From assembly GCA_964016885.1 (NCBI GenBank), contig OZ024742.1:92194001-92258000 (forward strand): a stretch of DNA of 64,000 bases, written 5' to 3'. The translations under genes were made by a program, and so were the position numbers. This DNA is from Eledone cirrhosa. Lineage: Eukaryota. Shown here piece after piece: positions 2,665-62,860 of this stretch (positions are counted from its first letter, which is position 1; every line of letters starts with the position of its first letter). The notes beneath the pieces are model-generated. The model was not told the origin of the DNA and made no database searches. It saw only the letters and a program-made list of their open reading frames with translations.

Positions 2665-3010
2665 TGACAAATGAAACAAAACAGAACAACGTAATGTTTT
2701 ACCTGGTGTATTTTAGCATGATATTTCGGGGCTAAAACCAACTCTTCAGATGCGAAGCTGAAGCAGTCCAATACTAAACAAATGAGCAATCAGAGTTTTC
2801 AGAGTTTTCTTCCCAAACTGGTCTATGTGTTTGCAAAACACATGCGCATGCACGTGGTTACTCAATAACCATTCTGCCTCATGCATTTCTGACATTTTGT
2901 TTTGTCTTGGAACGTTTCAGCTTTGCATCCGAAAAGAGGGTAATAGCCCTGAAATATGTTAAAATACAGCAGGTAAAATACTAATTTGCTTTGTTTCGTT
3001 TCATTTATCA
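2665..3010. mobile_element. Diverged fold-back element with a hammerhead
   Basis: ~2690-2790 is an imperfect inverted copy of ~2895-3005. Minus-strand HHR at 2716-2753: gcat CTGAAGA gttggttttagcccc GAAA ta TC atgc. A degenerate plus-strand counterpart lies at ~2925-2960. Confidence 0.65.
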
Positions 3011-4794
3011 TCAACTGCAGTTCGTAATTTTGAACCACATTGTACGGTTTTAAAAAAAGTAATTATCGGTCTTTCACTACACACACACACACACACATAT
3101 ATATATATACATATATGTGTGTGTGTGTGTGTGTGTGTGTGTGTGTGTGTGTGTGTGTGTGTGTGTGTGTGTGTGTGTGTGTGTGTGTGTGTGTGTGTGT
3201 AGAAAAAGACGATAATTATTGTAGCTTATATATATATATATGTTTTTATTTATATTTTACTGTATTTATTGCTTTGTGTCTTAACTTGTCAGTGTGTATG
3301 CAATAATTATTTATATGAAAGTGCGTGTGTGTGTGTGTGCATGTCTGAGTCTGTGTTGGTCTATGTACGTGTGTTTGTGAAGTATTTGTGTTTGTTTTTG
3401 TGTCTGTGTTTGAATTGTTTGAATGTTCGTGCCTTTACGTGTTAACATGTATTTGTGTTTGTTTTATGACACGAATGTAAAGTGAACAATGGAATAAAAG
3501 GATTTTGTATTACTATAGTGCACCATCAATGGTCATGAAGGGGAAAAACGGGTAACACTTTGTTTTTAATGTCGCCCTTGTCTGCCTTTGCTGGTGATTT
3601 CACGGAAGCTTACATAATTTAATGCCAGTATTATAAATGAGTCGGTTTCCCGGCACGTGATTCAACATCCGCGTGATAAATTAACCGCTTTATAAATGAG
3701 GATAGATGTTTTTAGTACATACACAAGATTCTAGTTAATACCGTCTTAAATGTATGTATGTATGCATGTATGTATGCATGTATGTATGTGTGTATGTATG
3801 TGTGGATATACGTGTGTATGTATGTGTGGATATATGTGTGCATATATGAATGTATGTGCGTACATATGTATGTGTGTGTATGTATGTATGTGTGTGTATA
3901 TGTATGTGTGTGTATGTATGTATGCATGTGTCTGTATGTATGCATATATGTGTGCGTGTGTATGTATGTATGTTTGTATATATGTATGTATGTGTATATG
4001 TATGCTATCTTAATGGACACAGCATGAATGAATGGTTACGAAACACATTTCGCAATCATAAGTTTCCTGGTTTGGGCCCCTTCTGCGATATCTTGTGCAA
4101 ATGTCATTTATCATAGACTCGGGTTAACCTAAACCTTGTGAATGTAATTGGGTAGATGAAACCAGATTAGAAGCCTGGCAGCTCGGCTGCACTAATAATT
4201 CGAAGGACCAACCTTCTTTTACATTGTGTCACGCTGAATCTCCCTAACGATTACATGAAAAGCACGTGTGACTGTGGAATGATCAATCACTTCCACGTTC
4301 ATTTCATGAGCAAGGTGTGCTGCTTATCGGACAACTGAAATCGGCGGAGATCCATTCCATTCCATCTTTCTTTTTAAATTATTTAAATTATCTTGTCAAA
4401 TAGGAATTAGTTAACAAATAGGAATTAGTTAACAAAGAACAAAGTACCATCGTTGGAATTTATATAGCAAAGAGCTGCATGTGGGAGTTGCTGCATATTT
4501 TTGCTGTTCCGCTTACAGATTGTATTTCCAAAGTACTTAGTTGTTGATAACTTTCTTTGCTTGAAAAACAAATGTCTTTTGAAGATTATAAGATTATCAT
4601 TTAGGCTCACCTCTTACATGATTGACTATATGTTTGTACCTACAAGGTTCCTTTCCGAGACGCAATCCTGGGAAATGTGTTTTGTGGAAGACCAACAGTC
4701 GCCGATGATTGCCTGTCTTTCTTCATTATGACACGACAAAAGCAGGCAAAACGTGCCACCACTGTGGTCGTCACTCGTTTTTCTAGGTGTATAA

Positions 4795-4910
4795 ACAGAG
4801 GAAACAGGAACTAAAGTGTCTTGGTCAAGGTCACAACGCGCTGCCCGGCCTGGAATCAAAATCTCAGCCACACAATAGTGCACCCAAACCCCTAACCACT
4901 AACCCATGCC
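4795..4910 (-). mobile_element. tRNA-derived SINE fragment
   Basis: Minus strand reads tgggttagtggttaggg...gattccaggccgggc...tgtgaccttgaccaagacactt (A/B-box-like head). Related pieces at ~47730-47830 and ~53760-53880. Confidence 0.5.
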
Positions 4911-59297: not shown

Positions 59298-59330
59298 ATA
59301 TATATATATATATATATATATATATATATA

Positions 59331-62300
59331 TTGGAATAAATGCTCTGAAATAGCGATATATATGTGAATATAGACATAGAATATTCGAAAATATTCTGTA
59401 TGTTTATAATAAACATTTTGAAGACCTAATCGCTATAGAATAGAATACGTCACGTATTACAATTAGATTCTCGATAAAAGCAAGGGAAGTAAGTCTACGC
59501 GTTTCATTCTTGTTAGAATTCATCAGGACTACATATCCAGTGCTTTCATCGAGAATGACACAGCTAGAGACTTATAGAATACTTAGCTGTGTACAGGAAC
59601 TGGTTTGAAAGAGCGGTTGCCGGTCCGGCAGAAATTAGAAATTGGAATAAATGCTCTGAAATAGCGATATATATGTGAATATAGACATAGAATATTCGAA
59701 AATATTCTGTATGTTTATAATAAACATTTTGAAGACCTAATCGCTATAGAATAGAATACGTCACGTATTACGATTAGATTCTCGATAAAAGCAAGGGAAG
59801 TAAGTCTACGCGTTTCATTCTTGTTAGAATTCATCAGGACTACATATCCAGTGCTTTCATCGAGAATGACACAGCTAGAGACTTATAGAATACTTAGCTG
59901 TGTACAGGAACTGGTTTGAAAGAGCGGTTGCCGGTCCGGCAGAAATTAGAAATTGGAATAAATGCTCTGAAATAGCGATATATATGTGAATATAGACATA
60001 GAATATTCGAAAATATTCTGTATGTTTATAATAAACATTTTGAAGACCTAATCGCTATAGAATAGAATACGTCACGTATTACAATTAGATTCTCGATAAA
60101 AGCAAGGGAAGTAAGTCTACGCGTTTCATTCTTGTTAGAATTCATCAGGACTACATATCCAGTGCTTTCATCGAGAATGACACAGCTAGAGACTTATAGA
60201 ATACTTAGCTGTGTACAGGAACTGGTTTGAAAGAGCGGTTGCCGGTCCGGCAGAAATTAGAAATTGGAATAAATGCTCTGAAATAGCGATATATATGTGA
60301 ATATAGACATAGAATATTCGAAAATATTCTGTATGTTTATAATAAACATTTTGAAGACCTAATCGCTATAGAATAGAATACGTCACGTATTACAATTAGA
60401 TTCTCGATAAAAGCAAGGGAAGTAAGTCTACGCGTTTCATTCTTGTTAGAATTCATCAGGACTACATATCCAGTGCTTTCATCGAGAATGACACAGCTAG
60501 AGACTTATAGAATACTTAGCTGTGTACAGGAACTGGTTTGAAAGAGCGGTTGCCGGTCCGGCAGAAATTAGAAATTGGAATAAATGCTCTGAAATAGCGA
60601 TATATATGTGAATATAGACATAGAATATTCGAAAATATTCTGTATGTTTATAATAAACATTTTGAAGACCTAATCGCTATAGAATAGAATACGTCACGTA
60701 TTACAATTAGATTCTCGATAAAAGCAAGGGAAGTAAGTCTACGCGTTTCATTCTTGTTAGAATTCATCAGGACTACATATCCAGTGCTTTCATCGAGAAT
60801 GACACAGCTAGAGACTTATAGAATACTTAGCTGTGTACAGGAACTGGTTTGAAAGAGCGGTTGCCGGTCCGGCAGAAATTAGAAATTGGAATAAATGCTC
60901 TGAAATAGCGATATATATGTGAATATAGACATAGAATATTCGAAAATATTCTGTATGTTTATAATAAACATTTTGAAGACCTAATCGCTATAGAATAGAA
61001 TACGTCACGTATTACAATTAGATTCTCGATAAAAGCAAGGGAAGTAAGTCTACGCGTTTCATTCTTGTTAGAATTCATCAGGACTACATATCCAGTGCTT
61101 TCATCGAGAATGACACAGCTAGAGACTTATAGAATACTTAGCTGTGTACAGGAACTGGTTTGAAAGAGCGGTTGCCGGTCCGGCAGAAATTAGAAATTGG
61201 AATAAATGCTCTGAAATAGCGATATATATGTGAATATAGACATAGAATATTCGATATATATGTGAATATAGACATAGAATATTCGAATATTCTATGTCTA
61301 TATTCACATATATATCGCTATTTCAGAGCATTTATTCCAATTTCTAATTTCTGCCGGACCGGCAACCGCTCTTTCAAACCAGTTCCTGTACACAGCTAAG
61401 TATTCTATAAGTCTCTAGCTGTGTCATTCTCGATGAAAGCACTGGATATGTAGTCCTGATGAATTCTAACAAGAATGAAACGCGTAGACTTACTTCCCTT
61501 GCTTTTATCGAGAATCTAATTGTAATACGTGACGTATTCTATTCTATAGCGATTAGGTCTTCAAAATGTTTATTATAAACATACAGAATATTTTCGAATA
61601 TTCTATGTCTATATTCACATATATATCGCTATTTCAGAGCATTTATTCCAATTTCTAATTTCTGCCGGACCGGCAACCGCTCTTTCAAACCAGTTCCTGT
61701 ACACAGCTAAGTATTCTATAAGTCTCTAGCTGTGTCATTCTCGATGAAAGCACTGGATATGTAGTCCTGATGAATTCTAACAAGAATGAAACGCGTAGAC
61801 TTACTTCCCTTGCTTTTATCGAGAATCTAATTGTAATACGTGACGTATTCTATTCTATAGCGATTAGGTCTTCAAAATGTTTATTATAAACATACAGAAT
61901 ATTTTCGAATATTCTATGTCTATATTCACATATATATCGCTATTTCAGAGCATCTATTCCAATTTCTAATTTCTGCCGGACCGGCAACCGCTCTTTCAAA
62001 CCAGTTCCTGTACACAGCTAAGTATTCTATAAGTCTCTAGCTGTGTCATTCTCGATGAAAGCACTGGATATGTAGTCCTGATGAATTCTAACAAGAATGA
62101 AACGCGTAGACTTACTTCCCTTGCTTTTATCGAGAATCTAATTGTAATACGTGACGTATTCTATTCTATAGCGATTAGGTCTTCAAAATGTTTATTATAA
62201 ACATACAGAATATTTTCGAATATTCTATGTCTATATTCACATATATATCGCTATTTCAGAGCATTTATTCCAATTTCTAATTTCTGCCGGACCGGCAACC

Positions 62301-62860
62301 GCTCTTTCAAACCAGTTCCTGTACACAGCTAAGTATTCTATAAGTCTCTAGCTGTGTCATTCTCGATGAAAGCACTGGATATGTAGTCCTGATGAATTCT
62401 AACAAGAATGAAACGCGTAGACTTACTTCCCTTGCTTTTATCGAGAATCTAATTGTAATACGTGACGTATTCTATTCTATAGCGATTAGGTCTTCAAAAT
62501 GTTTATTATAAACATACAGAATATTTTCGAATATTCTATGTCTATATTCACATATATATCGCTATTTCAGAGCATTTATTCCAATTTCTAATTTCTGCCG
62601 GACCGGCAACCGCTCTTTCAAACCAGTTCCTGTACACAGCTAAGTATTCTATAAGTCTCTAGCTGTGTCATTCTCGATGAAAGCACTGGATATGTAGTCC
62701 TGATGAATTCTAACAAGAATGAAACGCGTAGACTTACTTCCCTTGCTTTTATCGAGAATCTAATTGTAATACGTGACGTATTCTATTCTATAGCGATTAG
62801 GTCTTCAAAATGTTTATTATAAACATACAGAATATTTTCGAATATTCTATGTCTATATTC
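59331..62860. repeat. Palindromic tandem array of a 311-bp hammerhead-bearing monomer (retrozyme-like)
   Basis: Left units start at 59331, 59642, 59953, 60264, 60575, 60886 and 61197 (partial). The inversion centre is 61284/61285. The right arm has about 5 inverted units. (TA)n lies on both sides. Confidence 0.95.
61450..61493 (+). ncRNA. Minimal type I hammerhead ribozyme (representative; 5 plus-strand and 6 minus-strand copies at 311-bp spacing)
   Basis: gtagtc CTGATGA attct aaca agaat GAAA cgcg TA gacttac. Predicted cleavage is after GUA at 61486. Confidence 0.92.

Follow-up and report, generated by a model that had tools for sequence, protein, structure and literature searches.

The 64,000-nucleotide stretch of Eledone cirrhosa DNA analyzed here (contig OZ024742.1, positions 92194001-92258000, G000:C3; hereafter the window) belongs to a 3.0-Gb genome rich in microsatellites, and contains 15 sites, named below by their approximate starting positions in the window, at which inverted copies of a repeated element form a fold-back within (TA)n. 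This architecture is real and is the known footprint of Penelope-like elements (PLEs). We consider it probable, from genomic sequence alone, that the fold-backs are paired (TA)n insertions, produced by double target-primed reverse transcription of one RNA template by a putative PLE enzyme combining a reverse transcriptase (RT) and a GIY-YIG endonuclease. What these loci add is the presence of the footprint on multimeric retrozymes, together with counts that favor asymmetric double priming of one template over the snap-back of a single cDNA.

According to this model, a Penelope-like RT/GIY-YIG enzyme would cut both strands of a (TA)n site, and both target 3' ends would prime reverse transcription on one RNA template, either the enzyme's own RNA or, in trans, a non-coding retrozyme RNA. 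One target end would prime at a downstream (long) site with little base-pairing, and the other would anneal to a TA-rich upstream (short) site. Each RT would then proceed until falling off, and the two cDNA ends would be joined via microhomology-mediated repair.

Priming from both strands, one of the possibilities raised in a preliminary description of this DNA, is supported by divergent arms with fixed ends, by a strict pairing of short and long arms, and by a template haplotype that the two arms share. All 15 sites have a left arm in minus and a right arm in plus orientation, with both 3' ends outward, as judged from family references and self-comparison; where there was no complete hammerhead (2665, 6682, 17885, the four sites of family F2, and 28303), polarity was taken from family homology, the direction of open reading frames, and fixed versus ragged ends. 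Self-comparison of the window revealed local inverted repeats at 14 of the 15 sites; the one at 2665 surfaced only when sensitivity was raised (70% identity, E 5e-32), and its arms, about 70% alike, fit the long/short pattern by eye. Of the 15 sites, 14 were mapped with genome-derived references or, in the case of the PLE at 28303 and of 6682, through self-comparison and reading, and 2665 was mapped separately. The description had also noted that one arm often keeps the tail and the other ends at a TA microhomology, and 13 of the 15 sites indeed combine a long-tailed with a short-ended arm; 57966 consists of a short arm and a stub that stops inside the hammerhead. Two of its coordinates are revised: at 56852 the left arm starts at about 56794, and at the PLE the inverted arm reaches 32738 and not 32697 (Table 1).

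The elements bearing this signature are unrelated, as had been proposed: ten family references (the 2665 family being outside the comparison) show no significant nucleotide similarity to one another. The view that all are non-autonomous is not supported, since 7 of the 15 sites (four F2 sites, 58131, 2665, and 28303) derive from coding PLEs; four others are tandem retrozymes, and four are mini-elements without an assigned origin. The retrozymes F1 (311 bp), F8 (420 bp), F4 (487 bp), and F5 (505 bp) consist of non-coding monomers in tandem, each unit having its type I hammerhead, and self-cleavage of their transcripts is predicted from these motifs. Directly upstream of them we found no PLE coding sequence except for isolated neighboring matches. 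The F4, F5, and F8 monomers are longer than the 170-400 nt given for such elements in the available text of PMC7229834, and are inside the 51-972 bp given in that of Li et al.

F2 (15289, 27311, 51711, 58996) is the 3' end of a coding PLE, according to translations of L322-L327. Its parent has a DKT motif, a CxCX5C linker, no CCHH, and CxxC plus CxH around a conserved E and N, with RWR replacing RWK. These protein motifs agree with those of the Hydra clade (PMC8557442, section 11, as far as its text was available), whereas the canonical hammerhead of that clade is represented only by a core-like relic that lacks stem I and is negative by our descriptor; we call the parent Hydra-type and do not assign it as a member of the clade. 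F6 (58131) represents the 3' end of a PLE of the RT/GIY-YIG type whose linker is CX4CxxC, and relatives of 2665 have endonuclease-like coding sequence upstream, as read by eye. At least three PLE lineages with different endonuclease motifs carry the architecture here, and coding PLEs of this genome show the same arm geometry. The earlier idea of one integration mechanism survives in the sense of one signature and one kind of enzyme, but not of one lineage. The mini-elements F3, F7, and F9 are 140-220 nt long and begin near the hammerhead; no coding parent was found for them, the shared upstream sequence being about 50-150 nt of non-coding DNA in 5 of 19 single-armed F3 loci and in one F7 pair, and absent in F9.

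In nine families besides F1, the 25-30 top-ranked loci of each (out of 273-3,572 candidates, and including the window copy) were examined across the genome, giving 255 loci, or 250 distinct ones after five duplicates were dropped. Two divergent arms occur in 138 of the 250 and a single arm in 112; none is directly convergent, and one is convergent across TA. Short and long 3' end sites are fixed and lie 26-111 nt apart, the short sites all ending in a TA-like motif; the intervening tail measures 26-40 nt in F1, F6, and the 28303 PLE, and 56-111 nt in the seven others. Among 106 classifiable pairs, 98 are short+long, six long+long, and two short+short (Fisher p 1.7e-16). Long main arms had 73 short and 6 long partners, and short main arms 25 long and 2 short ones; the tail formed part of the F2, F4, F5, and F6 queries, which skews the main arm toward the long type. 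The proposed targeting of (TA)n is also upheld, with 277 of 353 canonical 3' ends at most 10 nt from (TA)4+, against 9-12% at background positions. Comparing overall identity within and between loci proved a weak way to test for a shared template, and variant sharing was used instead: minor alleles are common to both arms above permutation in F2, F4, F5, and F6.

The 311-bp retrozyme F1 provides the largest sample, with over 1,000 insertions: its long end is joined exactly to TA at 1,032 places genome-wide, and the short-end pattern has 1,226 matches, part of them internal units of a variant array. Of the 95 long ends in the first 256 Mb of C1, 41 are matched, no more than 10 kb away, by an exact short end in divergent orientation (chance would give 0.6); long-long pairs on opposite strands are absent, and the sole apparent convergent case is two neighboring insertions. 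Taken by position, the first 31 long ends on C1 comprise 28 with a divergent short arm, none with a long partner, one single, and two unreadable. In all, 58 F1 insertions were examined, of which four are single-armed, two unreadable, and 52 two-armed (38 picked via the junction pattern and 14 via monomer identity), and every one of the 52 pairs a short with a long arm; L333, an old degraded pair of 79-84% identity, was left out of these statistics, and 182 unlisted matches were not entered in the counts. Nearly all ends (102/104) are at most 10 nt from (TA)4+. At 5 of 17 loci an interrupted TA pattern resumes, on the same strand, beyond the insertion, and the microsatellite is therefore the target rather than an appended tail; it masks any target-site duplication.

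The two arms of an F1 insertion also agree in their variants. Of 163 variants fixed in one arm, 162 are likewise fixed in its partner (under permutation, mean 0.38 and maximum 0.51), and in five insertions private variants are common to both arms (e.g., in 7/7 and 11/11 units of L350, and in 10/10 and 11/11 of L046). A single monomer haplotype is therefore the source of both arms.

In the tandem families, the template is likely to be a monomeric circle around which the RT passes repeatedly, with strand displacement. The positions of F1 5' ends are compatible with a uniform distribution (p 0.22), and arm lengths, which reach 19 units, with an exponential one (p 0.13), as may be expected for an RT circling its template, the alternative being an uncleaved transcript that is long and homogeneous. 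The predicted cut site is neither favored nor avoided: 4 of 104 ends fall at most 10 nt from it, where 7 are expected. In 43 of 52 short arms the terminal C of the end unit is replaced by the TA run, which suggests that the target primer annealed with one mismatch; an earlier truncation could look alike. Because the long arm is not halted at the short site, either strand displacement or two sibling RNAs are required, and we incline slightly toward one RNA molecule.

The closest competitor is in fact a variant of the favored mechanism, overlapping it, in which two independent RNA-protein particles act, one per strand, the first using the long site and the second the short one, on sibling RNAs from one active source locus. 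Such particles would produce divergent arms, overlapping sequence, and independent arm lengths (F1: Spearman 0.25, p 0.07) with no need for strand displacement, and a dimeric protein has been predicted (PMC11167929). However, agreement at 162 of 163 variants would demand a homogeneous RNA pool in each cell, though at least 13 variants recur among the 52 insertions, and we regard this version as unlikely.

A second alternative borrows from L1 retrotransposons, in whose twin priming the second target strand primes internally by base-pairing, leaving a 5'-5' junction with 3' ends outward. Applied to a linear multimeric transcript, the second primer would block the first RT and the arms would be consecutive pieces of RNA. 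Some long arms do contain little beyond the tail (L279 and L282 in F9, L210 in F8, L251 in the PLE), and a read-through transcript of a homogeneous array would also yield shared variants. But the 5' end of the F1 long arm falls at the short site in only 7 of 52 insertions (p 0.26), revealing no blocking of the long-arm RT there; and unlike the arms of L1, which are non-overlapping and begin at variable sites, those of the non-tandem families usually overlap in sequence and start at fixed sites. We judge this alternative improbable.

If a single cDNA instead folded back and was copied into its mirror arm, shared variants would be accounted for, and self-priming of this kind has been proposed for PLEs (PMC3846280). 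Some centers are suggestive: that of F6 is a fixed palindrome in 20 of 22 two-armed loci, F9 is symmetric in 14 of 20, and the center of the window F1 fold-back sits on a natural hairpin. Yet an arm copied from a short arm has no reason to halt at the long site each time, and most F1 junctions are not those of a hairpin: near-symmetric junctions occur in 4 of 52 (5.2 expected by chance), the rest having mostly a few overlapping bases or short templated inserts, and in 22 of 52 the short arm exceeds the length for which the long arm could have been the template. In other families, 29 of 98 pairs have arms neither of which is contained in the other. Snap-back, which the preliminary description had set beside twin priming as an equal, is thereby rejected for F1 and for most families, whose arms have mutually exclusive sequence; as a general explanation it is very improbable, and it is in F6 that it may apply.

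Although (TA)n runs are fragile, and fold-back chimeras arise in amplified or long-read data, it is scarcely credible that the palindromes result from DNA rearrangement after insertion (cruciform or fold-back repair at (TA)n) or from read or assembly artefacts, which would copy the flanks and give mirror-symmetric arms, whereas these loci have two family-specific end sites, flanks unmirrored in most cases, and about 1,000 exact long-end junctions genome-wide. A miniature inverted-repeat transposable element (MITE) or foldback DNA transposon was also rejected: fixed and equal terminal inverted repeats would be expected, and here the ends differ by the tail and the center differs per copy.

Several observations weigh against the favored mechanism or limit its reach. 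Because the retrozymes have no nucleotide similarity to the PLE ends tested, the case for mobilization in trans is made from the shared signature alone. Nonsignificant tests of uniformity do not prove a circle, and no run recorded as RNA contained F1, which is evidence neither way; the 311-nt joint does appear in public contigs, but a tandem DNA array gives the same joint. In vitro, the two strands did not differ in start site (PMC11167929, in its available text), and tails of 56-111 nt are longer than the published 30-40 nt. In 32 of the 138 two-armed loci an end is non-canonical or coincides with the limit of the retrieved sequence, and, with flanks of 1.5 kb, the 112 single-armed loci of 250 are a maximum estimate. 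In F8, allele sharing did not exceed chance (2/6), and in the older F4, units inside one arm are only 94.8% alike. The fixed symmetric center of F6, found with a query that included this center and accompanied by four long+long pairs, fits snap-back or an inherited palindrome. Finally, the claim that arms never converge is true of the window and, for direct convergence, of the 250 loci, but the 2665 family contains one convergent short+long pair over a short TA run (L315/L321), in 1 of 19 distinct loci (20 were taken, of which two coincide). Adjacent separate insertions within one TA run likewise face 3'-to-3', and at L274 a minus-strand match lies 147 nt behind a PLE end, across TA. The L315/L321 pair itself (G000:C17:24961353-24961659) is inside-out, its arms meeting with different 3' ends across approximately (TA)10 and having identical 5' ends outward.

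The preliminary description took hammerhead polarity as the sense strand at its sites. A relaxed type I descriptor detected 20 motifs in the window, compared with a mean of 0.4 (maximum 2) in 40 shuffles; it was relaxed because the strict form, with 14 motifs, missed others that have an unpaired base after the core. An extra nucleotide at this position is typical of PLE hammerheads (PMC4209133). Complete motifs occur at 10933 (+), 26791 (-), 57999 (-), 58322 (-)/58438 (+), 58689 (-), and, within the array at 59330, in 11 units; the motifs at 56997 (-) and 27041 (+) have a truncated stem I. Sites 2665, 17885, 15289, 27311, 51711, 58996, and 28303 have only core-like relics and 6682 has none. 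Among the 150 of 188 Rfam matches listed for the window there is no hammerhead, the top ones being nearly all microRNA models on microsatellites and palindromes, and a single unit gave only a sub-threshold match to HH9 (17.8 bits, E 0.037, gathering 52).

Hammerhead-shaped motifs with U3/A8 instead of C3/G8 and a palindromic stem III occur at 15109 (+), 17683 (-), and 58689 (-), in (TA)n-bounded elements; two of the three were absent from the preliminary description, and their stem I is weak. A U3-A8 pair is able to substitute for C3-G8 in hammerheads. A complete type I hammerhead with stems of 6/4/3 also lies at 38255 (-), outside the 15 fold-back sites.

This architecture is not new, having been described for coding PLEs. 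In endonuclease-bearing (EN+) PLEs an inverted 5'-truncated copy is present, (TA)n is targeted, and a tail of 30-40 bp often marks one end, by a mechanism called undefined (PMC8557442), and head-to-head copies are their usual form, for which self-priming was proposed (Arkhipova et al. 2013, PMC3846280). The fold-backs analyzed here resemble them in these features, in hammerheads near the 3' end, and in microhomology at the 5' junction; they differ in occurring also on non-coding tandem arrays, with up to 19 or more units per arm, and in tails that range from about 26-40 up to 111 nt. Relative to the self-priming model of PMC3846280, most junctions here are non-palindromic, and the short/long pairing has been counted. 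In vitro, Poseidon PAc cuts and extends both strands of an AT-rich target, and two internal RT start sites downstream of the hammerhead delimit its tail (Frangieh et al. 2024, PMC11167929), much as the two sites do here. The available text of that study reports no homology at the start sites, whereas the short site here matches (TA)n, and it does not link two-strand extension to inverted insertions. In the literature searched, titles and abstracts yielded no paper on PLE mechanism that links twin priming to Penelope.

Metazoan retrozymes of the non-LTR kind (LTR, long terminal repeat) are AT-rich non-coding tandem monomers that have a type I hammerhead per unit and coexist with PLEs (Cervera and de la Pena 2020, PMC7229834; PMC7761336; Li et al. 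2026, bioRxiv 10.64898/2026.07.22.740005). These papers argue from co-occurrence and from homology to pseudo-LTRs (pLTRs), and they leave the mobilizer of animal retrozymes open in their available text. A circular template and mobilization by PLEs have been proposed without the head-to-head, (TA)n footprint (PMC7229834, PMC7761336, PMC11722881, PMC4209133, bioRxiv 10.64898/2026.07.22.740005), and the head-to-head arrays, one-sided tail, and (TA)n targeting that we observe are not reported in what was available of these sources; nor are ribozymes mentioned in that of PMC13282606. We found no report of head-to-head retrozyme arrays or of strict short/long pairing in the literature searched, the scope of which did not extend to Arkhipova 2006, Repbase, subscription papers, or supplements (e.g., File S2 of PMC8557442 and preprint tables). 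A young and abundant non-coding 311-nt family with the full PLE footprint constitutes genomic evidence for PLE mobilization that is independent of sequence homology. The origin of tandem and inverted PLE insertions has been named an open problem (PMC8557442). We tentatively suggest, as a possibility short of an even chance, that a Penelope-like enzyme integrates the circles of animal retrozymes through a pair of rolling-circle reverse transcriptions running at once on a single circular RNA, one per strand of a cut (TA)n and always from two different fixed start sites, and that the same asymmetric priming generally causes the inverted repeats and one-sided tail of all endonuclease-bearing PLEs. 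As a short RNA whose two start sites are mapped, F1 would suit the in vitro assay already available. Palindromes of this kind are liable to be misfiled as MITEs, microRNA hairpins, or unknown repeats.

Table 1. Fold-backs and PLE features of the window.
Element	Window positions	Strand or arms	Remarks
Old fold-back of PLE-family 3' end	2560..3078	left minus, right plus	hammerhead core 2749 minus; left start approximate
Fold-back, diverged relative of 420-bp retrozyme F8	6682..7219	short arm left, long arm right	84% to F8 reference; without hammerhead
F4, 487-bp retrozyme	10613..11571	long arm minus 10613-10771; short arm plus 10792-11571	short arm 1.6 units; hammerheads 10933, 11418
F2, 3' end of Hydra-type PLE	15290..15492	long arm minus 15290-15427; short arm plus 15427-15492	
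F3	17889..18164	long arm minus; short arm plus	internal gap in long arm; hammerhead core decayed
F5, 505-bp retrozyme	26458..26970	long arm minus; short arm plus	complete hammerhead 26791 in long arm
F2	27308..28012	short arm minus 27308-27692; long arm plus 27692-28012	
Frameshifted PLE	28307..32620	minus	Asn-rich N-terminal part, RT, CX4CxxC linker, GIY-YIG-type region; 3' end is short site
Direct pLTRs of 28307 PLE	28346-28577 and 32391-32620		96% identical
Inverted 5'-truncated pLTR of same PLE	32621..32738	plus	40-nt tail, then (TA)n
F2	51711..51914	long arm minus; short arm plus	
F3	56794..57120	long arm minus; short arm plus	hammerhead core 56997 (stem I cut off) in long arm; internal deletion in short arm
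F9, 143-nt mini family	57931..58031	short arm minus; plus stub 58010-58031	complete minimal hammerhead 57999 in short arm
F6, 3' end of RT/GIY-YIG PLE	58129..58591	long arm minus; short arm plus	center symmetric; minimal hammerheads 58322, 58438
F7	58598..58878	short arm minus; plus arm	U3-A8 hammerhead variant 58689 in short arm; plus arm has internal deletion, then long-site end
F2	58996..59299	long arm minus; short arm plus	deletion in tail of long arm
F1, 311-bp retrozyme, long arm	59330..61254	minus	6.2 units, six hammerheads; ~35-nt tail at (TA)n
F1, 311-bp retrozyme, short arm	61267..62860	plus	5.2 units, five hammerheads; end is internal TA microhomology

Three PLE RT loci lie in the window, at about 97-2536 (minus; Pfam RVT_1 and GIY-YIG), about 12076-14424 (plus), and 28307-32620 (minus). 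In the frame of the last, RVT_1 is below cut-off (E 0.0015) and Pfam gives no GIY-YIG match, but DKS, CX4CxxC, and VY..YIG with two C and two H can be read directly. By these motifs, 28307-32738 would qualify as an autonomous PLE with an RT, a C-terminal GIY-YIG, and pLTRs, and appears Neptune-like. The closest named relative of the window PLE protein is a predicted protein of Octopus vulgaris (70% identity). A long asparagine-rich stretch in the N-terminal part of the 28307-32620 PLE (31117-32085, minus) recalls the N-rich inserts of rotifer Penelopes (PMC3846280). A fragment of the short-site end of this PLE, about 25 nt long, stands alone inside (TA)n at 58879-58924 and in the left flank of L041.

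Concerning F1, arrays of a 310-bp variant carry the short-end pattern in every unit (G000:C1:105760990-105762475, 165008668-165010528, and 169700721-169703801), and an old relative of the family, 67-84% alike, lies at 41743-42231 (-). About half or more of the words of the 311-bp monomer (window 59340-59960) are present in 20 runs under 18 organism codes; in X4 and X5 the monomer forms one unbranched 340-nt contig, over 99% alike, at a depth of 26-34. This occurrence in multiple organisms may reflect contamination, close kinship, or horizontal spread. In X1, an unrelated public data record, contigs carry TA runs joined to the element at the same two sites (10 contigs and 1 contig).

Single-armed copies of similar elements end at (TA)n at 27040-27282 (+), 57496-57783 (-), 15612-15657 (-), 97-2536 (-), and 11599-11938 (-). 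A further dispersed repeat family has copies in both orientations at 22488-26245, 40877-41034, and 45128-46385.

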